Made by a program: the position numbers and the translations under genes. Of a DNA stretch of 64,000 nucleotides, positions 1 to 64,000 are shown piece by piece. Position 1 is the stretch's first letter. Each line of letters opens with the position of its first letter. This DNA is from Vicugna vicugna. Taxonomy: Eukaryota. The stretch is taken from positions 808,001 to 872,000 of the forward strand of contig MU058153.1 in the NCBI GenBank assembly GCA_013265495.1. Reading direction: 5' to 3'. A model generated the notes under the pieces. It had not been told where the DNA came from. It made no database searches and was given only the letters and a program-made list of their open reading frames with translations.

Positions 1-279
1 CATTGTAAATAATCTGTTTTTAAGATGAAACAATGCAAGGCCGCAGAAGGTATCAAATTTCTGCCCAAGCAGGGGCAACTGAAATACACATTTTAGGAAA
101 ATTTAGTCATGCAAAAAAAAGAGAAAAAATTAGCAGGAATGTTTATTAAGATATAAGTAACTGTAACTGCAAAGTGGCTTCGCTAATCCTCAACTCAAAT
201 AAAAGCAGAGAATGAAGCAGTGTCTGTTTTAGCCTTAATTGGAAGTAGTGACCATTTCCTAGAAATTTTAAGAGCAAGG

Positions 280-402
280 TATTGTAATCAGACTGTGATG
301 TTTGGGTTGACATCCCGTGCCTACAGCCATGTAGCCTTGCACTAATCACTTACTCTATGTCTTCCTCAGTTTCTCTACCTAGAAAAAAGGAGTAGAAATA
401 GC
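280..402 (+). mobile_element. MIR SINE fragment (ancient)
   Basis: Degenerate MIR core CCTCAGTTTCTCTACCTAGAAAAAAGG resembles CCTCAGTTTCCTCATCTGTAAAATGG. Confidence 0.45.
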
Positions 403-1239
403 TGGAATATGTCCCTTGTAAATGCTATTTATAAATGCTTTTGAGTAGCATTTACAGTCATGAATTCACCCTTAAAATTAACTTCTGGACTCTTTCTTGA
501 ATATGGGGTTAACAAAACAGAAAGTTACAGTGATAAACTCTGGACACCAGAAGTCACCATGACTCCTGTTCTGAATTCCATTATGCGGTGATGGTGATGA
601 TGATGATGGTCGTAATGACCAGGTCAATGCCTTAAAAGGAAATGGACACAAACGCCATCACATCTGTGGGTAGTGGAAAGAGAGTGACCTAGTCAATGTG
701 TCTAGAGCTTTGAGTAGAGGTGGAGATTGCATTTTCTAGTCACCTAGGTCTGAACTCTCCCACTGTCTTTGTTTAGTTTCAGAACTCACTGAGAGAGATG
801 TGGCCTCTCTTTTTTGAACTTACAGAGCCAGGCAATGCAGCATATCATTTTGCTCTTGTGTTCCACATAAACCACACATATCAGGCATATATATATGTAT
901 GCTGTTTATTTATTTATTTATTTTAACAGGTGTTCCTGAAGATTTTTTAATCTACTATAAGCAAACAGTTTAGCAACACAATTTTAAATTAAATATTAAA
1001 CAAGCTTATACCTTCAAATCCTTCACCTTAGTTCTTCCCAAATGCTGATCTTTTGTGTTCATGTCTGGCCATTCTCCCTTTTGTCTCCCTGAGAGTTATT
1101 GCTTTTTTTCCAGAAAGTATGTGATAGAGTCTGTTAGCAACTCCAAAATAATTTCTCTCACTGTATTATGCAAAGCAATCTGACCCTCCCCAAAGGCTGT
1201 CAAAGGACGATATCTGCGTAACCACAATGTCGTAGGAGA

Positions 1240-2340
1240 AACTGAATTGAGAGAGAACCTATTGTCAAACAGATGGGTCTTTTAGACAATGATAAAGATG
1301 TTGGGTTTTAATTCTAGTAAATTTAGAAGCTATTAGAATCTTTCAAATTGAGAGAAAGAAGTGATCCCTAACATATATTCTAGAAGTATCACCTTGGGTA
1401 ACAAGTGAAGAATGACCACGTGGGAGAAAAATCAGCAGAAGCAAGGAAACCAATTAGGAAGTTATTGCAACCATGAAGGCAAGATATAATGGTGATTTCT
1501 ATAAATATGGTTATTAGCAATAGAAGTCATGAAAAGTGTCAGATTTTGAAAATATATTGAGGATATAGCCCATAATATTTGCTTATGGGTTGTAGATAGC
1601 ATGTGAGGGGACAGAAAAAAAAAAAGTGTGTTCAAAATTTGAGGCTTTATCTACTAGAAGGAAAGAGTTTTGGATTCCTTAGATGGGCATTGCTGTAGGA
1701 AGGCAAGTTGGGACAATAGGGGAACTGGAAATTTGTCTTAAGACATACTGAGTTTCAGATGTGTATTAGATATCTCACCAGAGATGTTAAGAAGGAATTG
1801 AAAGATCAGAATTTGCAACCCAGGAGATAGGTTTAGGCTGAAGATTAAATGTGCCAATCATAATACAGATGCTGTGTATAGCCACAAGTTTGGATGAGAT
1901 TATCAATGGAGATAAGTGTAGAAACAAAGGAGAGGAGGTCCTTCAAACTAGGGCACTTCAGTGTTTAGATCAAAACAAGAGGATAGGGTGCTGAGATGGA
2001 ACAGCAAATATGTAGGAGAACCAGGAGAGTCTGGTGTTACTGAAGCCAAGTTGAGAAAGTGATTCTAGAAGATAAGAAAGACTTATAGATGCAGAGGTTG
2101 GCAAAAGGTTTGGTAAGATGACGATCAAGATTTCACCACTGAGTTCGTAAGCTAGGAGCCTCAACAAGAGCGAGAATGGTGGAGCTGCAAAGCCGAAAAC
2201 TTGATCAGAGTGAACGCAAGAAGTAGAAGGGATCTGAGGGCAGGTGATGCATACAGATAACTATTTGAAGGAGTTTTGCTATAAAAAGGAAAAGCAATAG
2301 GATGGATGGTGACTAAAAGGGAGTGTGGTATTAGGAGAGA
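1240..2340 (-). mobile_element. LINE-2 (L2a-like) fragment, ~1.1 kb
   Basis: Purine-rich run collinear with antisense L2 motifs, e.g. GAAACCAATTAGGAAGTTATTGCA, GAGTTTCAGATGTGTATTAGATATC, GGATGAGATTATC, GGAGAACCAGGAGAG. Confidence 0.8.
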
Positions 2341-2615
2341 TTTGAGATTAAAAAAATTAATTTGATATTAATTTGTTTGATGGAACATATAGCCTACTGA
2401 TGATGGTTCAGGAAAAAGTGAAAATTTGATTTTGTTATTAAAAGGGACAATTTCAGGAAAGAAGCCTTATAGTCGGTAAGTCAAGACAGTACTTAACATG
2501 CAGTAATGTTGTTTTAGATGTCAGTAAAGTCAAAATAAAGAGACAGAATAAATGACTCATCATAGAAGTTAAATAAAGGCTGGCTATTAATATTATCTAG
2601 AAACTTGCACATATT

Positions 2616-2745
2616 GTTATTAAAAAAAGATGGTAGGGGAGGTAATTCGTTTTATTTATTTATTTTTAATGGAGGTATAGGGGATTGAACCCAGGACGTC
2701 ATGCATGCTAGGCAGGCACTCTACTACTGAGCTGTACCCTCCCCC
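2616..2745 (-). mobile_element. tRNA-Ala-derived SINE (camelid vic-1-like), long form
   Basis: Minus strand reads GGGGGAGGGTACAGCTCAGTAGTAGAG (A box) ... GGGTTCAATCCCC (B box), then an A-rich linker and AATTACCTCCCC. 11-bp TSD TTGCACATATT at 2605-2615 and 2747-2757. Confidence 0.9.
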
Positions 2746-4943
2746 TTTGCACATATTAATTATTCACATTATAGGAAATTTATTACAACAATAATTTCTT
2801 ACTGGAAATTGAAGTTATTAAAAATTTGTTGAAGAAACTTATAAGACTCATTGCCTATTATTACTTTCACCCTTCCTGCTGGTATGGATTCTCTCAAGGA
2901 GGAAATTCTCCTCCTCTCTCAAGGGGAGCAACCTGGGACAAAGTAACTCTTGAGCCTAACTGCCTCCTGCAAACCTGCTTCACTTGGCTTCACTGAAAAT
3001 TGGTGGTGGTGAGAGGAACTGGGTGGCGACTCAGATACCAGCGCCCTTGGCACGATTCTCTTCTCCAAGGCCAGACTTAGATTTCCAGAACTATTGAAAC
3101 CCATTTCAGGAACTATCTCTCATTCTGTCTCTTTGTTTGCTGGTTTGATTTGTAGACGACTATGCCTGAAATCAGCTTAACCTGCTAGGTAGTGAGCTTG
3201 GAATCTTGCTGCTCCATAATGAAGGTCCTTGTGATGGGCAAGCAGAAGTTGGTTGTTAAATTGCAGAGTTTTCAAGGACTTTCCATGAACTCCAGCTGTA
3301 ATTCCAAACTGGTATTTCACTAAGTCAGAAAGGAGTGCAAATGGCCTACTTCCCCTGTCCTTTCTGCCAATTTGCTGTAAGTGCTGATTATTTTGTCAAG
3401 CGTTTTGAGCTCAGCCCTCTGCCTATAGTATCTGCAGCCTCTGATGGATTGTGGTGAGGGCAGTAAGTGTTGGAAATGAAATGTCTTGTTTATTTAAGAG
3501 AAGAGTTGAAAGTGAAACAGGGTTTGCTCTGCTTTTGGGAAGACTGAGTAAATGCTAACGAGAAGTAATTGAAAGTCTTTATTTTCATATGAAAAATCAA
3601 GGGCAGATAATCCCTACATGCCCGGAATGGCAAGGCGGCTACTTTCATTAGAGGATAAAGAGCACCCTTAGAATGAAACAATCTCTGTTTATATTTTATT
3701 CAGGAGTTTGAAGAAGAGTCACATATAAAGTGTTAATCTATCATCCTTTATGCCTCTGTGGTTAGCAACTGTATTGAATCTCAACAAAGGGAAGTTTTGC
3801 TTATTAAGAGTCTAGAATTCTTGATCTTGTGAAGTTTCTTTTAAAAATCTAACTAATACATTTTTAAGAAATTAACTGAGGGCGAAGAAAATCCTGACAA
3901 TTTGTTATCAATGCTTGTGACAGCGAATCTGAAATAATCCAGTAACATTTTAAACATTAATTTATTTCAAAGTTATGTCTGAAGTAGTAGTTTTTAATAG
4001 AATGGAATCCAAGGGGACAGGTCTTCACATATTCTGCAAAATTTTAATTACCAAAACAATGCAAGACACCATCGGTTTCCTTTATTATGGGTGTGCATGC
4101 TGGAGGTAGGGCTCTTTAATGATATTCAATAAACATTCTTAAGCCCCTTATTGTATGTTCAATCCTATGCAAAGTAGCCACTGAGGGAAAGAGAGAGGAA
4201 GGGGAAGAAGTGGTGAGAATTATAAAATAAATATCACGCAATCCACTTTTTACTTAAAGACCCAGAAGCTAATAGTTGTCTGTTCCTGGACAGCACCATA
4301 GAACTAAAGACGTACAAGTCTATGATCAGAGCACTTAACCAAAGCAATAACAGTCCTGATAAAAATTACTAGAATGGTTACAATATGCTTGATGTTTATT
4401 TTAATTAAAGCTACAGGAAGCATAGGACTTCACACTGAACATGCAGGAAGATGAGGACTGTCTGACAGAATGGGGTACAAAGAAGAATTGAGGCTATGAC
4501 GTTATGGAGACTTGGGAATAATGCACAGAGACTCAGGGACAATTGCACAGTGAGCACTTCCAAGCCAGAGCATGTGTTCAAACTAAGCAGAGAGGAAGCA
4601 TGAGGGATAAACAGGCATCCTCAACACTACGGTCTTCTGCTAAGCCTCGCTACGTGCAGCTATTCCATTGTCCTCTGAAAAAAAAATGAGCATCCAGGAA
4701 AAATCATGTATGAACCAACATTACTTATTCCTTATGCTGTTATCATTTCCTGTGTATCAAACACAAACAGGCTTCTTTATGTTTCAAAGACACACATTGT
4801 CTCAGAACGGATAGAATATAGGAATTTAGTGAAGTCTCAATAGGGAAGAAGGATTTTGTCTGAAACCAGAAGAATGGAGTTTGAATAAATAGAATAGATT
4901 AATCTTGTGTAATAAGGACTAATGATATTATTAATATATAGCT

Positions 4944-14510: not shown

Positions 14511-14904
14511 TATTTTTCTCTGTTTAAAAATGTATTTTATTTTGTTATTATTTTTCATTGAAATATAATTCACATTCTATAACATTCATCATTTTAACAT
14601 GCACAAGTTGGTGGGTTTTAGTATATTCACAGCCTTCACTGCTATCTAATTCTAGAACATTTCCTCACCCCCAAAAAGAAACCCCATACCCATTAAACAG
14701 GCATCCCCCACTGCTCCCCTCTCCCCAGTTCCCAGCAAAACTAACCCACTTTCTATCTCTATAGAGTTGCCTAGTCTGGACATTTCTCGTAGTTGGAATT
14801 ACGTATTATGTGGCCTTTTGTGACTGGTTTCTTTTACTTCATGTACTCTTTTTGGAGTTTATTCATTATGTGTTATATTTCAGGACTCCATTTCTTTTTT
14901 TTAA

Positions 14905-15370
14905 TAGTTTTTTTAATTCTTATTTTTTATTGAAGTGAAGTCAATTACAATGTTAGTTTCAGGTGTATGACAAAGCAATTCAGTTATACATACACATACA
15001 TACATATTTTTTTCAGTTTCTTTCCATTACAGCTCATTACAAGAAATAGAATATAGTTCCCTGTGCTATATAATAGGTCCTTGTTGCTTATCTATTTTAT
15101 ATATAGTAATGTGTTTCTGTTAATCCCAAACTCCTAATCTATCCCTCTCCCCTTCCTTTCATCCCTGGTAACCACAGATTTTCTGTATGTTCCTGAGTCT
15201 ATTTCTGGTTTGTAAATAAAATTTGTGTTTTTTTTGATTCTACATATAAGCAACATCATATGATATTTGTCTTTGTCTGACTGACTTCACTTAAAATGAT
15301 AATCTCTAGGTCCATCCATGTTGCTGCAAATGACATTGTTTCATTCTTTTTTATGGCCAAGTAATATTCC
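14905..15370 (-). mobile_element. Younger 5'-truncated L1 3' end nested in the old L1
   Basis: TTTTATTGAAGTGAAGTCAATTACAATGTTAGTTTCAGGTGTATGACAAAG...ATAGTTCCCTGTGCTATA...CATGTTGCTGCAAATGACATTG. Flanked by a TTCTTTT(..)AA TSD-like repeat. Confidence 0.85.
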
Positions 15371-15551
15371 TTCTTTTAAGCCTAATATTCCATTGTATGA
15401 ATAAAATACATTTTAATTATTTATTCCTTAGTTGATAGACATTTGTTTTTTTCCCCACTTTTTGGCTATTATGGATAATACAGCTATGAACATCCATTTC
15501 ATTTTGTATGAACATAGGATTTCAGTTATCTTGGGCTAATACCTAGAAGTA

Positions 15552-15973
15552 TGCTGAGGTTATAATGCAGAAATAGTGTGGACTCCCACCCCAAATTTGG
15601 CTTATGTGTGAAGGCTGATACTGCCACACATACAGCAGAGGGTATGAAAACTTTTATTACAATGAGACTTTCTGGGGAAAGCAAGACAGGCCTCCCAAGC
15701 TGGTCAAAAAATTACTTAAGTGAGAAAAAACGGGAGACTGGCTTGGGGTTTTTATTGTGGTTAGGGAGTGGGGCTGGGGGGGTGGTTCCCACTCAAGGGA
15801 AGGAGGTTGAGTAGTTTGAATCTCTCATATCTCTCCTTGGTGCCAAAATAGGGAATACTCGGCCTTTCTTATCAGTCTGCCCAGGTGTGGGGTCCAAGGG
15901 GAAGAGGGAAGTGTGAGACTTAAAAGCTGTTGGCAGTCAAATATCAAAAAATGGAGTCAGAGTCTTTATTACA
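15552..15973 (-). mobile_element. Solo LTR (probably ERVL class) nested in the old L1
   Basis: TG...CA termini; minus strand begins TGTAATAAAGACTCTGACTCCATTTTTTG. It splits the L1 motif ATACCTAGGAGTGGA with an imperfect 5-bp TSD (AAGTA at 15547, GAGTG at 15974). Confidence 0.75.
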
Positions 15974-16200
15974 GAGTGGATCTGCTAGATGTTACGGTGA
16001 TTCTGTGTTTAGCTTTTTGAACTGTCAGACTGTTTTCCACAGTGGCTACACCATTTGACATCACCACCAACACAGTACGAGAGTTACAATTTCTCCAAAT
16101 CCTTGTTATCCATCTTTTGTATGATTATTGTTGTTGTTGTTGTTATTACTATCATCCTAGTGGTATTAAGTTGTATTACATTGTGATTTTTATTTGAATT

Positions 16201-16355
16201 TTTCTTTTCTTTTTTTAATTTTATTTTATTGAGTTATAGTCAGTTTACAATGTTGCGTCAATTTCCAGTGTAGAGCACAATTTTTCAGTTATACATGAAC
16301 CTACACATATTCATTGTCACATTCCTGTTCACCGTGAGCCACCACAAGAGCTTGC
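16201..16355 (-). mobile_element. Short young L1 3' end (same family as the 60787 element)
   Basis: GAGCACAATTTTTCAGTTATACATGAAC...ATATTCATTGTCACATT...GTGAGCCACCACAAGA is nearly identical to 60811-60940. Confidence 0.9.
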
Positions 16356-17484
16356 ATAATGATGCAGAACATCTTTATATATATTATTTTCCTTTTGCAT
16401 ATTTCCTTTAGAGAAATATCTTTTCAAATCCTTCGCTGATTTTAAAAATTGGGTTGTCTTTTTACTGTTGAGTGGTGAGAATTCTTTCTATGTTCTGAAT
16501 ACAAGACCTTTGTTAGATGTATGATTTGCAAATATTTTCTCCTATTTTGTGAGTTGCCTTTTTGATTTCTTCGTGGAGTCCTTTGATGCAAAAGAAGTTT
16601 TAAATTTTGGTAAAGTCCTATTTATTTATTTTTTTCATGTGGTTGCTTTTCCCTTGTGGTGTCCTAGCCAAAAAGCTATTGTCTAATTTAACATGACTAA
16701 CATTTATACCTATATCTCATTCTAAGGGTTTCATTTATAGTATTAGCTCTTACGTTTTGTTCTTTTATCTGTGTTGAGTTATTTTTGTATGTGGTTTGGT
16801 TGAAGGGGTGTACGCTCATTATTCTGCATGTAGATATCCAAAGCCTGAGTAATCCTGATACTCACAAGGGTTATAGCCTCAATGTGCAAGTATCGTGGTT
16901 CCTGTGATAGTCTCTGCAAACCATATACTACAGCTGATCCCTTATGTCAGCCAAATGGAAGTCATTTACCAAGCGTTTTGTTTGCTTTTATAGCCAAGAA
17001 CTGTCACATTCTTAGACTACTCAGAAGTCTTTTTAGTACAGATATGAGAATGGGTAGTTAACTTTGTTTTCTAAGCCGCCTTTCACCAGGAACCTAAGTT
17101 TGTCACTTCCTGAGACTTACTGATCATAGCAGTGACCAGCAGCGAAAAATAAACAATACTGCAATGCAGGTGCTGGGTATTGGCTTGTCTCTCTCCCAAA
17201 TAACTGATTCATTGATGTACAGTGGTCAGTCAGCCAATTGAAATGTTTTTTTAATAAAATTAGAAATAACTATAAGCCAGGGGTCTAAAGAATTGCTCTG
17301 GAATACTCCAAACGATGAGTGTTCTATCCCCAATTGCCATCACATTTTTATCAAAAGTAATTTCTTTAATCTTCTCTTTGCCCTAGAGTCAGACACTGTT
17401 TGATATCTGTAGAGTTGGTTGCATGGCACATACATAATCTCTGAGCAAGGGTTCTGTTTTCATACTCCCTCTGGGGCCCAAGAA

Positions 17485-27957: not shown

Positions 27958-28216
27958 AGCCAATTGTTAGACTGGGAAAAAGCTTCGTGGGCAGATCCAA
28001 TATATTGCACCTTTAAAATCAATAGTAAAATTGAATACATTACATTAGGGAAATTGGCCACTGAAATAGTCAAGTAGGTACTGAGGGGGCAGTGGGCATG
28101 GGGCAGTGGACATATCTCAGTGGTAGAGCACCTGCTTAGCATGCACGAGGTCCAGGGTTCAATTTACAGAACCTCCATTAAAAAAAATACTTAAAAAAAT
28201 CAAAAAGAAGAAGGCA
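27958..28216 (+). repeat. Left arm of a long-range inverted duplication (flank + SINE)
   Basis: Exact reverse-complement blocks: 27993-28027 with 41626-41660 (35 bp) and 28041-28072 with 41586-41617 (32 bp). Confidence 0.95.
28085..28200 (+). mobile_element. tRNA-Ala-derived SINE (vic-1-like), short form, with a 14-bp tandem duplication at its head
   Basis: GGGGCAGTGGGCAT GGGGCAGTGGACAT ATCTCAGTGGTAGAGCACCTGCTTAGCATGCACGAGGTCCAGGGTTCAA...CCTCCATTAAAAAAAA. Confidence 0.9.
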
Positions 28217-41451: not shown

Positions 41452-41697
41452 TGCCTTCTTTTTTTCTCATTAAAAAAAGCTTCTTTTTTAATGGAGGTAC
41501 TGGGAATTGAACCCTGGACCTCTTGCATGCTAAGCAGGTGCTCTACCACTGAGCTATGCCCACTGCCCCCCAGCACCTTCGTAACTGACTATTTCAGTGG
41601 CCAATTTCCCTAATGTATTCAGATGTACTATTGATTTTAAAGGTGCAATATATTGGATCTTCCCACAAAGTTTATTCCCCCGTCTAACACCTTGGCT
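41452..41697 (-). repeat. Right arm of the long-range inverted duplication (flank + SINE)
   Basis: Reverse complement of 27958-28216, with substitutions and small indels. Confidence 0.95.
41459..41571 (-). mobile_element. tRNA-Ala-derived SINE (vic-1-like), short form
   Basis: Minus strand GGGGGGCAGTGGGCATAGCTCAGTGGTAGAGCACCTGCTTAGCATGCAAGAGGTCCAGGGTTCAATTCCCAGTACCTCCATTAAAAAA; TSD-like GAAGGTGCT / GAAGGCACT. Confidence 0.92.
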
Positions 41698-49430: not shown

Positions 49431-50297
49431 GTCCCTTGTTGTCACATCATTTGCAAATATTTTCTCCCATTCTGTAGGTTGTCTTTTCATTTTGTTTATG
49501 GTTTCCTTTGCTGTGCAAGAGCTTTGAAGTTTAATTAGGTCCCATTTGTTTATTTTTGCTTTTATTTCCATTACTCAAGGAGCTGGTTTGAAAAAAATAT
49601 TGCTGCAATTTATGGCAAAGAGTCTTCTGCCTATGTTTTCCTCTAGGAGTTTTATAGTATCCAGTCTTCCTTGTAGGTCTTTAATCCACTTTGAGTTTAT
49701 TTTTGTATATGATGTTAAAGAATGCTCTAATTTCATTCTTTTACATGTAGCTGTCCCATTTTCCCAGCACCACTTATTGAAGAGACTGTCTTTTCTCCAT
49801 TGTATATTCTTGCTTTCTTTGTCATAGATTAATTGACCATAAATGTGTGGGTTTATTTCTGGACTTTCTATCCTTTCCATTGATGTATGTGTCTGTTTTT
49901 GTGCCAGCACCATACTTTTTATTTACTGTAGCTTTGTAGTATAGTCTGAAGTCAAGGAGCATGATTCCTCCAGCTCCGTTTTTCTTTCTCAAGATTGTTT
50001 TGGGTGTTTGGAGTCTTTTGTGTTTCCATACAAATTTTAACAGTGCTTGTTCCTGTTCTTTAAAAAATGTCATTCGTTATTTGATGGGGATTGCACTGAA
50101 TCTTTATAGTGCCTTGGGTAGTATGGCCATTTTAGCAATATTGATTTTTTTCAATGCAAGTCTATTTTTCCATCTGTTTGTGTTGTCTTCAGTTTCTTTC
50201 ATCAGTGTCTTACAGTTTTTGGAGTACAGGTCCTTTGCCTCCTTAGGTGGGTTTCCCCTAGGTAGTCTGTTCTTTGTGATGTGATGGTAAATGGGAT
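49431..50297 (-). pseudogene. L1 ORF2 fragment (post-RT region), frameshifted
   Basis: ORF track 49822-50073 ([10 protein letters not shown]...[17 protein letters not shown]) and 49575-49913 are typical ORF2p motifs. Confidence 0.9.
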
Positions 50298-50800
50298 CAA
50301 ACAGCTCATACAGCTTACTATCAGAAAAGCAAAGAACCCAATCAAAAAATGGGCCGAATACCTAAATAGACATTTCTCAGAAGAAGACATCCAGATAGCC
50401 AACAGATACATGAGAAGATGCTCAATATCACTAATTATTAGAGACATGCAAATAAAAACTACAATGAGGTATCACCTAACACCAGTCAGAATGGCTATCA
50501 TTGAAGAGTCTACAAATAATAAATGCTGGAGAGGGTGTGGACAAAAAGGAACCCTCCTACACTGTTGGTGGCAATGTAAATTGGTGCAGCCACTGTGGAG
50601 AACAATATGGAGGTTCTTTAAAAAACTGAAAATAGAGTTACTGTGTGATACAGCAATCCCTCTACTAGGCATATATCAGGGAAAGAAAAAAACTCTAATT
50701 CGAAAAGATACATGCACCCCAATGTTCATTGCAGCGTTATTTACAATAGCCAAGACATAGAAACAATCTAACTGTCCATCGACAGATGAATGGATAAAAA
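50298..50800 (+). pseudogene. L1 ORF2 C-terminal cysteine-rich domain fragment
   Basis: [17 protein letters not shown]...[22 protein letters not shown]...[15 protein letters not shown]. Confidence 0.92.
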
Positions 50801-50814
50801 AAGATGTAATATAC

Positions 50815-50845
<31 letters not shown>

Positions 50846-51429
50846 ATGGAATACTGCTCAGCCATAAAAAAGAATGAAGTAATACCATTTGCAGCAACAT
50901 GGATCGACCAAGAGATCATCATATTAAGTGAAGTGAGTCAGATAGAAAGACAAATGTCATATGATATCACTTATATGTGGAATCTAAAAATAATGGTACA
51001 AATATTATTTACAGACCAACAATAGTCTCATGGACATAGAAAACAAACTACAGTTACCAAAGAGGAAAGGGCAGGGAGGGATAAATTAGGAGTTTGGGGT
51101 TAACAGATGCACATTACTGTAAATAAAATAGATAAACAACAAGGTCCTACTGTATAGTACAAGGAATTATATTCAAATTCTTATAATAACATATAATGGA
51201 AAAGAATCTGAAAAAAATCTGTATTTGTGTATAACTGAATCACTTTGCTATACTCCTGAAACTAATATTGTAAATCAACTACACTTTAATAAAAAAATTA
51301 AATTCCAAAAAACACCCAGCATACAATTTTAATAAGAAGAGAGTCATTGGTTGTATGCAACTCCAGGACTTCATAATTCATACACCTGATTGTCTTCTTA
51401 ATTTGTAAAGAGATGCACTAAGTTATTTT

Positions 51430-55458: not shown

Positions 55459-55652
55459 TTTTTTTAAATTGAAACATAGTTGATTTACAATGTTGTATTA
55501 GTTTCTGTTGTACAGCATAGTGATTCAGTTATACATGTATATACATATTCTTTTTCACATTCTTTTTTATTATAGGTTATTACTACTCTGTACCCAATAA
55601 ATAAACAACAAGATCCTACTCTATAGCACAGGGAACCATATCTAATACCTTT
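55459..55652 (-). mobile_element. Miniature 5'-inverted L1 (~190 bp)
   Basis: 55459-55583 is the antisense L1 terminus; ~55579-55652 is the immediately upstream L1 3'UTR in sense orientation (compare 51112-51200). Confidence 0.85.
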
Positions 55653-59702: not shown

Positions 59703-61602
59703 GTATTAGTGGTTATATTTCACAGGAGGAGAACCCTATCCTGTTTAGCTACTTTCATATAAATAAGAACCAGGTTTCCCCCTGGGCTACATAGCTCTGC
59801 AGATACAGAGTCCTAAAATCTGACGATGCAGCATCAGCTGTATTTCAGGGGCCTTTTTCTTGGGCACAAACAGCCCAGTCATATTTGGCTACCCTGATTC
59901 CTAGTCTGCTTACTTGTACAACTTTGATGACCACTTAAGGGAAAGGGAAATGATCAGTTCTCAGGGGTATACTTTAAGTTGTGTTTCTGGAATGTTTCTG
60001 AGAGATGTTACAAAGTCATCAACAGAGATTCCCAGATCACAGGTATGTTGTATGCCAGTCTTTGAACTTCACCTCTGGTCATTTTTGGTGGATGTCTTGA
60101 TAAAGAAGACATAACTTTCTGGCTGAGTCAGGTTTCTGGTCCTCTTGGTTATTTTAGCAAAATCAAGGCAGAGGAGAAAGAAAAAAAAATAAGGAGCTTT
60201 AGAGTTGGAGGTCATTAGGGAAGAAAAGCTAATGAAGTTGTGAAAGAAGTGTAATAGAGAAAAGTTAAGAGAGGGGGAAAGATGGAATTCCAAGTTGGGT
60301 TAAAGGTTGAATATTTTGGTCTCTAAAGATTAATTTGTAAATATTTGGTGGAAAATTTTGTTTCTATGAAATGTAATTGTTGTTTCTTAAGGGATGAGGA
60401 TTTGGAGAGCTGTAGATGGAGGGAAAAGCAACCACCTCATTTTGGAGGAATCTTTGGCAGCCGTGGAAATTATATAATATATATTGCCAGGGTTTTCAAC
60501 TATGAGTAGGAGCAACGTCCAAGTCTAATTGGTGGACCTGCAAGCCAGAAATTCTGAAAGCCTCTCCTTCATCCCATGTTAATTGCAAATGAACATATCT
60601 CTAGCAGAGGGAAGCCCTCGCTTCTTCAACATCCCTCACTGCTATGGTGCAACCAGTGTTTATGCTTCTGGGGAGATTACAGCCAGCTGTCTTCCATGGG
60701 AATTGCCTGGGTTGCCAGTTGGCCAGCGATGCCATCCCACTTCACTGTTAGTTAATAAAAATGCTGAGGAGAGAATGCTTTCTTTATTATTATTATTTAT
60801 TTTTTTTTAATTGAGTGATAGTCATCTTACAATGTTGTGTCAAATTCTAGTGCAGAGCACAATTTTTCAGTTATACATGAACATATATATATATATTCAT
60901 TGTCACATTTTTTTCCACTGTGAGCTACCACAAGATCTTGTATATATTTCCCTGTGCTATACTGTTTATCTATTCTGCATTTTAAAATCCCAGTCTGTCC
61001 CTTCCCACCCCCTGCCCCCTTGGCAACCACAAGACTGTATTCTATGTCTATGAGTCTGTTTCTGTTTTGTATTTATGTTTTTGTTTTTTTTTTAGATTCA
61101 TCATATGAGCGATCTCATATGGTATTTTTCTTTCTCTTTCTGGCTTACTTCACTTAGAATGACATTCTCCAGGGACATCCATGTGGCTGCAAATGGCATT
61201 ATGTTTTCATTTTTTATGGCTGAATAGTATTCTATTGTATAAATATACTACATTTTCTTTATCCAGTCATCTGTCAGTGGACATTAAAGCTGCTTCCATG
61301 TCTTGGCTATTGTAAATAGTGCTGCTAGGAACATTCGGGTGCAGGTGTCATTTTGAAGTAAGATTCCTTCTGGATATATGCCTGGAGCAGGATTCTTGGG
61401 TCATATGGTAAGTATATTCCTAGTCTTTTGAGGAATCTCCATACTGTTTTCCACAGTGGCTTTCCTTGCTTCCTTCTCCCACTCTTAATGATTTAGAGGT
61501 CTTCTTTTACAATTTTATGTTTATTCTTTTTGTAATTCATGGCAGTTATCTCCTTTCCAGTTATGAGTTTCTCATTTTTGTAGCATCCTGCTTCTTTTCT
61601 AT

Positions 61603-62501
61603 TTAGAGTAGACCTGTCAATATTTCTTTTAGCATGGGTTTAGTGTTGCTAAACTCTTTAGTTTTTGCTTGTCTGTAAAGTTCTTTATCTCTCCTTCTAT
61701 TCTAAAGGATAGCCTTGCTGGATAGAGTATCCTAGGCTGCATCTTTTTTTCATTCAGGACTTTGAGTGTATCCTGCCACTGCCTTCTGGCCTGTAGTGTC
61801 TGTGTAGAGAAATCAGCTGAGAGCCTTATGGGGATTCCCTTGTAACTCACTCTTTGTTTTTCTCTTGCTGCCTTTAGGACCATTGCTTTATCCTTGACTC
61901 TGACCATCTTGATTATGATATGTCTTGATGTGGGTCTATTTGGGTTCTTCCTGTTTGGGACCCTCTGAGCCTCCTGTACTTGGATATCTGATTCCTTTAG
62001 GTTTGGGAAGTTTTCAGTCATGATTTCTTCAAATACCTTTTCAATCCCCTTTGTTCTTTCTTCCCCTTCTGGAACCCCTATTATGCATAGATTGGCATGC
62101 TTTATGTCATCCCATAGGTCCCTTATATTGTTTTCATTGTATTTTATTTGTTTTTCTCTCAGCTGTTCTGATTGGGTGCTTTCTATTGTCCTGTCTTCTA
62201 GGTCACTTATTCATTCCTCTGCATTATCTAGCCTGCTTTGTACAGCCTTTAGGTCAGCTCTCATCTCAGCCAATGAGTTTACTAATTCTACTTGGTTCTT
62301 CTTTATAGCTTCTATTTCATTTTTGACATATTTTATATCTTTAAACACTATTTCTTTTAGTTCCTTCAGTACTTTGGTCAGTCCTTTTTTGAAATCTTGA
62401 TCTAGTAGGCCATCAATGTCTATTTCCTTGATCGTGCTTTCAGGGGATTTCTCTTGATCTTTTAATTGGGAGAGGTTCCTCTGCTTCTTCATATTGCTCA
62501 T
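61603..62501 (-). pseudogene. L1 ORF1p (~299 aa if repaired); one nonsense codon and one 1-bp deletion
   Basis: ORF-track pieces 62211-62501 and 61629-62021 share a frame, linked by AEE*ISDLEDR...LWDDIKHANLCIIGVPEGEE. Motifs ENFPNL, IRLSADFS, QARRQW, YPARLSF. A frameshift at ~61657 restores EFSNTKPMLKEILTGLL*. Confidence 0.93.
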
Positions 62502-63780
62502 ATCTCTCTGACACTGTGGCTTAAGGAGTATCAGCTATCTAGTTCTCCTGGAGATGGTGTGCTCTTAATGATTTTATTGAGGTCTTTGTGTCTTCACCCT
62601 GTTTCGTGAACTCAGCTTGCTGTTTCTAGAGGCCCTCTGTTGGCACCCTCATCTGTGCTGCTCCCAGTGGCTGTCGGCTGGCAGATCATGCCCCCTCCTA
62701 ACACTGGGTCAGGTGCTGAGCTCTTACCCTGTGGGCAGGTGGGTCATGACCCCCCCCCCAGCACCATGGTCCGGTGCTGCATTCCTGCCAAGAAGGTGGG
62801 TGGCCGCCCTCCCTTTCCCAGCACAGATCGCTCCACTGCTCTGTGCAGCTGCCTGCTCTGCCTCTGGTCAGCACTCCGGAGGCGGGCTCTGGAAAGACCA
62901 CAGAACGGCCCCATCCCTGCTCTGTGCCAAATCTCAGCTCCTTGTTTGTCTTGGTGGCACAAGTTCTCTGAGGTGCCAGGGCAGAAAGATCCTAATGTCT
63001 TGGGCTGTAAACAAGTCTCAGTCCTGCCTAGGAGGTTGCGGAGCCCCCAGGTGCAGATTCAGGTCTCAGCCCCTCCCGGACCCGGGCACTGCGCACTGGA
63101 GAAGATGGCGGCTGTGGCTGCACCCTGCCTCTCTTCTCGCGAGAAGCACCAGTAATGGCGGTGCAGGTCTGAGGAGACAAAGGCTATGGCGCCCTTCCCC
63201 GCAGGGCACACCAGCCGTGTTGCTTCGCTTTTATCACAATTTATGGAGGACTGAGGTTGTTCTGCTCCATATCCCCTCCCAGCCACGGCGTACAGCACCC
63301 TGCAGTCCTCCAGGGCTGCCTCAGTGCAGCCGCCTCATTGCTCTGCCTAGCTCGGGCAGCCCGTCCTGGCCCCAGCTGCCAGCTCCCATCTCGGGCTGGG
63401 TGTCGTGGGGACCCTCCATGCCCGTTTAACTCAGTTCTGTCAGTCAAGGGATGCTCGGGGCAGATCTGAGCCTCGGAGGCTCCCCCTCCATCCCGCTGGC
63501 CTCTACATTGGATGGGGGGAGACCCAGAGAATGAGCACCAGTCCTCATTTGTTGCTCCCTCCCTGGGGGATTGGTCCTGCACTGTTTTGGTTTTTCTTCT
63601 TTCTTTTTTCCTTTTCTCCTACAAGATTTTTGGTGTCTTTGTCTTTCGAAGAGTGACATTCTGTCGGAGTTCAGCAGGTGCTCTGGTTGGCTGAGTAGGT
63701 CCGTAGATGTGAGTTTTGGTGTATTTGTGGGAGAGGGTGAGCTACGAGCATCCTTTACTCCATCATCTTGCTTCATGTCC
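62502..63780 (-). promoter_or_regulatory. L1 5'UTR internal promoter region, GC/CpG-rich
   Basis: The only extended CpG-rich tract in the window. The 5' end reads GGACATGAAGCAAGATGATGGAG (decayed YY1-type AAGATGGCGG), and an intact AAGATGGCGG is on the + strand at 63102-63111. Confidence 0.8.
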
Positions 63781-64000
63781 GAGAATGCTTTCTTTAGAGT
63801 GGAGTAGTGCTTTCTGCTGCATTTGTGAATTTTATGGAAGAGGAACTTTATGTGGACATTGGTAAGATTTCATAATTCTGACATGCACTAATTATGCCAA
63901 AGCATGTGGGTGGTGAATCAATAGTTTTCCAGGAAAATTGAGTAACACTCCACTACACATTGAACTTCTTTAAAAACAATTACTTTTCAATGATTCAGAG

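Follow-up and report, generated by a model that had tools for sequence, protein, structure and literature searches.

An ORF2-Less L1 Element in the Vicuna Genome: Dead Copy of a Candidate HAL1-Like Family or Scar of a Single Event

Introduction

When an L1 element has kept both of its ends and its ORF1 while the greater part of ORF2 is missing, is it one copy of an amplified non-autonomous family, or the outcome of one deletion at one place? This question is raised by a locus of the vicuna, found in a stretch of 64 kb that was analysed as a whole (the window), for which the original prediction had proposed an ORF1-only L1 of the HAL1 kind. HAL1 (half-L1) non-autonomous retrotransposons of mammals were reportedly described by Bao and Jurka in 2010. 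As far as the relevant passages of four papers go, HAL1 is a non-autonomous L1 derivative which codes only for ORF1p and has had several origins in mammals (PMC5753468, PMC13756887, PMC4161310, PMC3627910), and the premise of the original prediction, that ORF1-only families arose repeatedly in mammals, agrees with what is stated in PMC5753468, PMC3627910 and others.

HAL1 families are named for marmoset and guinea pig, e.g., HAL1-1C_Cja and HAL1-1H_Cpo, in a part of PMC3183009 where no very young family is given for alpaca. The literature searched contained no camelid HAL1. In the main text of a survey of transposable elements in Camelus (PMC8605555) HAL1 is mentioned 0 times; according to the same text, non-LTR elements were detected by their reverse transcriptase, so an ORF2-less element would be missed by such a survey. 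The pertinent passage of PMC6726744 names L1-2_Vpa and only a 73-bp match to the bat element HAL1-3_ML.

Results

The element lies on the minus strand, from 63780 to 60787, and its 2,994 bp are flanked by two identical 16-mers (Table 1), for which the chance of occurrence is about 7e-10 at two given ends and about 7e-6 when 100 x 100 end positions are considered. As the first T of the repeat may be part of the AAT-type tail, the true target-site duplication (TSD) is 15-16 bp long. The hallmarks of L1 insertion are present, namely the A tail, the TSD and an A-rich target; the target sequence, CT/AAAG on the element strand, we take to be near the TT/AAAA consensus, and the 5' end, which consists of GG and a decayed CAAGATG-type motif, presumably resembles the 5' ends of full-length L1s. 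With both termini, an A tail and a TSD of this length, the locus is a single L1-type insertion. The element had been predicted as 2,994 bp within a perfect 16-bp TSD, with a 5'UTR of about 1.28 kb and an inter-ORF spacer of about 140 bp, and all of these values were recovered by measurement (Table 1). An assembly chimera or two adjacent L1s are ruled out, because a single TSD encloses both parts, and a twin-priming inversion is ruled out by the colinearity of all parts of the element. The ratio of observed to expected CpG equals 0.29-0.40 in the 5'UTR versus 0.03 in ORF1, and self-alignment of positions 62401-63780 revealed no long internal tandem or monomer repeat in the 5'UTR.

Table 1. Parts of the vicuna element, listed in the 5' to 3' direction of the element (positions in the window).
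Feature	Position	Strand	Remark
5' target-site duplication (15-16 bp)	63781..63796	-	100% identity to 60771-60786
L1 5'UTR, 1,279 bp	62502..63780	-	GC 56-58%, CpG observed/expected 0.29-0.40
ORF1, ~300 codons, broken	61603..62501	-	TAA stop codon 61603-61605
Inter-ORF spacer, first 141 bp	61462..61602	-	assigned by place after the ORF1 stop
Deletion junction	61460..61462	-	local alignment to older L1 at 50588 begins at 61461
ORF2 remnant	61090..61461	-	lower end approximate, inferred from 124 remaining codons
L1 3'UTR	60811..61089	-	other, older L1 3' ends of the window are 68-83% identical
A-rich tail, in part an AAT repeat	60787..60810	-	
3' target-site duplication	60771..60786	-	repeat partner of 63781-63796

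The predicted ORF1 is present at full length, but its reading frame is broken by a TGA stop at codon 97 (62211-62213) and by a frameshift some ten codons from its C-terminal end; a one-codon deletion is present as well. ORF1 is a full-length but dead gene, since the stop and the frameshift exclude that the locus still bears an intact or working ORF1. In the Pfam scan, which covered five pieces (two of them from ORF1), matches came from the C-terminal piece of ORF1 only, to PF02994 (E = 4.5e-24) and PF17490 (E = 1e-18), while comparison with human ORF1p structures gave E = 1.6e-55. The protein is an ORF1 of the L1 type (coiled coil, RRM, CTD), as is characteristic of elements of the L1 clade.

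The protein search with ORF1 yielded 5,264 matches among 6,591 candidates, the best 120 of which were listed. Among the matches listed there are three close relatives, at 82%, 87% and 78% identity, and the next nearly full-length named relatives come from pig, at 55-60%. Over approximately 208 common columns the identity of the element equals 87% to P0005, 84% to P0004 and 79% to P0025. From the majority of these three relatives the element deviates at 17 of 203 positions, and we therefore consider it an old, neutrally decayed copy. It can also be seen that the close relatives are of two types, the element being nearer to P0005 than to the intact-looking P0004, a split that may reflect two L1 subfamilies within the lineage of the host.

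The peptide PLWKTVWRFLKRLGIYLPYDP, which begins at 61459, matches human ORF2p residues 1152-1172, and the predicted jump from the spacer to the last part of ORF2, with the 3'UTR and A tail behind it, is thus real; in the local alignment, homology to an older L1 of the same window (at 50588) sets in abruptly at 61461. On the scale of human ORF2p (1275 residues) the remnant opens at the position of residue 1152, so that ORF2 codons 1-1151 (approximately 3.45 kb) were lost, along with part of the spacer. With these codons went the endonuclease and the reverse transcriptase, as well as the Cys-rich motif that lies immediately before the breakpoint, and the remnant, within a 3' piece of 675 bp past the junction, still corresponds to about 124 C-terminal codons of ORF2. 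No ORF of endonuclease or reverse-transcriptase size is present within the element, and the absence of both domains, also foreseen in the original prediction, follows from the point at which ORF2 resumes. Within 61200-61460 the remnant carries one frameshift and two stops. The junction sequence reads ...AAG|CCACT, where the AG at 61461-61460 agrees with the ORF2 side and may represent microhomology, as judged from the ORF2 side alone.

A spacer ATG at 61540 shares its frame with the ORF2 remnant beyond the junction, so that a minus-strand frame of 71 codons, with one stop, extends over 61328-61540. An in-frame junction is expected by chance in one case of three, and it is highly improbable that this ATG let a master make a small protein of spacer and ORF2 C-terminal sequence.

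The older L1 of the window occupies positions 49445-51297 (ends approximate) and has a 5' inversion followed by the 3'UTR, which is the usual twin-priming layout: its minus-strand piece, 49578-49922, corresponds to human ORF2p residues 899-995, and its plus-strand piece, 50266-50757, to residues 1056-1207. Other older interspersed repeats were noticed at 14896-16358, 27958-28216, 41452-41697 and 55459-55582, with 68-83% identity to each other or to the 3' end of the element; the pieces at 14.9-16.4 kb and 55.5 kb are L1 3' ends. A separate observation concerns the sequence L003, where positions 1-3424 form a tandem repeat with a period of 2,185 bp and units that are 98% identical, derived from a diverged L1. 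Its components are part of ORF1, the spacer, an insert resembling a SINE, the C-terminal end of ORF2 and the 3'UTR. The repeat is another ORF2-less L1 derivative with a different junction, and we take it to be pig-like.

The search for further copies of the element was made at several levels. In the 64-kb window there is no second copy, and the seven other matches to the element, all of them to its 3' part, show 68-83% identity. Metagenome contigs, a collection with almost no host DNA, contained 0 exact matches to the junction 25-mer; ORF1 was found there in 6 of 264 candidate stretches (five loci, 38-64% identity), all of which, judging from their divergence, appear to derive from other mammals. 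ORF1 was confirmed in none of 6 candidates from viral contigs and none of 148 from prokaryote genomes. The spacer motif gave no match in prokaryote genomes, and its one match in viral contigs was rejected as a chance match in unrelated sequence. The plasmid collection gave one 65-bp match that is not relevant, and the phage collection gave none. Since these non-host collections hold almost no DNA of the host, their blanks weigh little on the copy number.

At the protein level, when the 90% protein library was searched with the junction peptide, neither near lengths nor longer ones gave any candidate, a blank which is uninformative because ordinary ORF2 proteins were missed as well. In the 50% protein library, 53 of the 63 matches were scorable, and none of these had more than 5 of the 27 residues of the spacer peptide; in the remaining 10 of 63, inspected by eye, the spacer peptide was absent from the first 80 residues.

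In the run index, 62-67% of 421 sampled words from 59800-64000 were present in 14 of 24 rows (organisms A and B), while rows X21-X24 bear the vicuna's own species label (D). As the flanks make up 28% of 59800-64000, at least 47-54% of the words of the element must be present in those rows. This suggests that the insertion is common to organisms A and B, the word shares being blind to a short versus a full-length allele. In the RNA rows the word shares were 0.10-0.24, which is no evidence of expression.

The decay of ORF1 and of the ORF2 remnant was used as a single-copy proxy for selection on ORF1 in a master line. Conserved columns were scored across other mammals, for ORF1 on 117 matches with the three close relatives left out, and for the remnant on 63 matches for its first piece and 19 of 63 for its second (61200-61460 only). 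At the 70% threshold, 23 of 144 conserved columns were changed in ORF1 and 3 of 37 in the remnant (Fisher p = 0.30), while at thresholds of 60% and 80% the same test gave p = 0.53 and p = 0.30. Most of the ORF1 differences are common to the close relatives, and those private to the element, about 7 of 144 as read from the lists, correspond to a rate like that of the remnant. Since the remnant has changed no more than ORF1, a long ORF2-free history is not visible. Disabling lesions number three in 87 codons of the remnant versus two in approximately 300 codons of ORF1, a difference that is not significant (p = 0.079).

Discussion

The layout of the element, its insertion hallmarks, its breakpoint and its later decay can be read directly at the locus. 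The reading that we prefer, to which we assign a probability of about 50%, is that the element is a dead copy of a multi-copy, HAL1-like, ORF2-less L1 derivative. To hypothesize, an L1 of the same lineage, presumably one of the camelid L1 families of Repbase (e.g., L1-2_Vpa), would have lost the rest of the spacer together with ORF2 codons 1-1151, the two sides of the junction having no more than 1-2 bases in common. The shortened element would have retained the promoter, ORF1 and the poly(A) end, and for this reason would have been transcribed; its short RNA would have been copied into the present site by target-primed reverse transcription with ORF2p from a full-length L1, and the inserted copy would then have decayed neutrally. 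We infer that the RNA lacked ORF2 before it was inserted; only in that case does mobilisation in trans by ORF2p follow, and sister copies, if any, would probably number tens to hundreds. The retained parts are those of known HAL1s, i.e., the promoter, ORF1 and the 3' end, which supports a family. The excess of lesions in the remnant, although not significant, leans slightly towards a master in which ORF1, and not ORF2, was under selection, while the equal decay at conserved columns would fit a one-off event, or else a master that had only just lost ORF2 and gave rise to copies for a short time. We hold more tentatively the fuller version of this proposal, in which the copy belongs to an undescribed and independent camelid HAL1 family whose master lost ORF2 at this very junction, kept ORF1 under selection and reached many loci by means of borrowed ORF2p.

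Compared with HAL1, the vicuna element has the same composition: an L1 5'UTR, ORF1 (present, though broken), an L1 3' end, no endonuclease or reverse transcriptase of ORF2, an A tail and a TSD, and by analogy it would depend on ORF2p in trans. Unlike the HAL1s, which are named as families, the vicuna element is known from one copy and its ORF1 is broken; also unlike them, it retains the C-terminal end of ORF2. Another known kind of internally shortened L1 that bears normal insertion hallmarks is the SpIRE; among full-length human L1s, about 2% (131/6,609) are SpIREs according to PMC5860796. In a SpIRE, splicing at canonical sites has removed either some of the 5'UTR or the beginning of ORF1, and ORF2 is retained (PMC5860796), whereas the vicuna element retains the 5'UTR and ORF1, loses ORF2 and has what would be a weak acceptor.

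It is unlikely, but deserves the most serious attention among the alternatives, that a full-length L1 was inserted here and that an ordinary deletion, through end-joining repair, later removed approximately 3.5-4 kb of it, which would leave a one-off scar. A single large deletion at the locus would give a picture identical to the one observed: a full-length insertion would leave the two ends and the TSD as they are seen here, ORF1 and the remnant are equally decayed at conserved columns, as if both had died at insertion, and the copy is old enough for such an event, as its ORF1 differences from the majority of the relatives indicate. However, the deletion would have had to spare all of ORF1 and the entire 3' end, which would be the parts needed by a mobile non-autonomous element, and deletions of several kilobases that stay within a single element are uncommon.

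Less probable still is a template jump, in which a full-length L1 RNA would have been copied by its own ORF2p and the cDNA would have skipped upstream after about 675 bases, to the spacer, and continued to the 5' end, again as a one-off event. The length of the 3' piece is near the usual stop of reverse transcription: in the part of a recent preprint concerned with breakpoints (bioRxiv 2024.08.27.596794), the median 5' breakpoint of L1 insertions is given as 5.5 kb, with a median of 503 bp for non-inverted ones. Additionally, PMC4476161 documents U6 chimeras that arose when L1 switched templates. The same preprint classifies 3,611 new somatic L1 insertions in humans by long reads, and in the classification as given there, 10 are full length, the rest are 5'-truncated with or without inversion and 81 are unclassified, while the switching events, 20 and 3, all have inversions. 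That part of the source, which concerns human tumours and not the germ line, names no class in which the 5' end is intact and the deletion is internal and colinear, and a deletion during insertion is therefore less likely. Taken together, the two one-off readings come close in probability to that of a family.

The weakest candidate is a spliced L1 RNA, joined from a donor in the spacer to an acceptor late in ORF2 and then retrotransposed, whose junction might recur without a master as in human SpIREs: in the older L1 of the window an identical CCACT is immediately preceded by CAG, so the AG could serve both as exon end and as intron end, but only 8 of the 20 bases before this AG are pyrimidines (a poor acceptor, read from an older L1 of another subfamily), and the human classes described in the cited section of PMC5860796 are intra-5'UTR and 5'UTR/ORF1, which makes this origin improbable.

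Conclusions

The vicuna element is real and has sharply defined ends; it is a dead, ORF2-less L1, at best a lineage-specific addition to the known HAL1 kind and at worst a single deletion scar. If it arose as a one-off, it is an ordinary genome scar. If the family is true, ORF1-only L1 parasites would have arisen independently one further time, and the element would offer a fairly young case, sharply delimited at its breakpoint, in which the parent L1 would be findable and selection on ORF1 after the loss of ORF2 would be measurable. Such a family would provide camelids with an entry for repeat libraries and with insertion markers, and it would bear on the reason why HAL1s retain ORF1p in cis.
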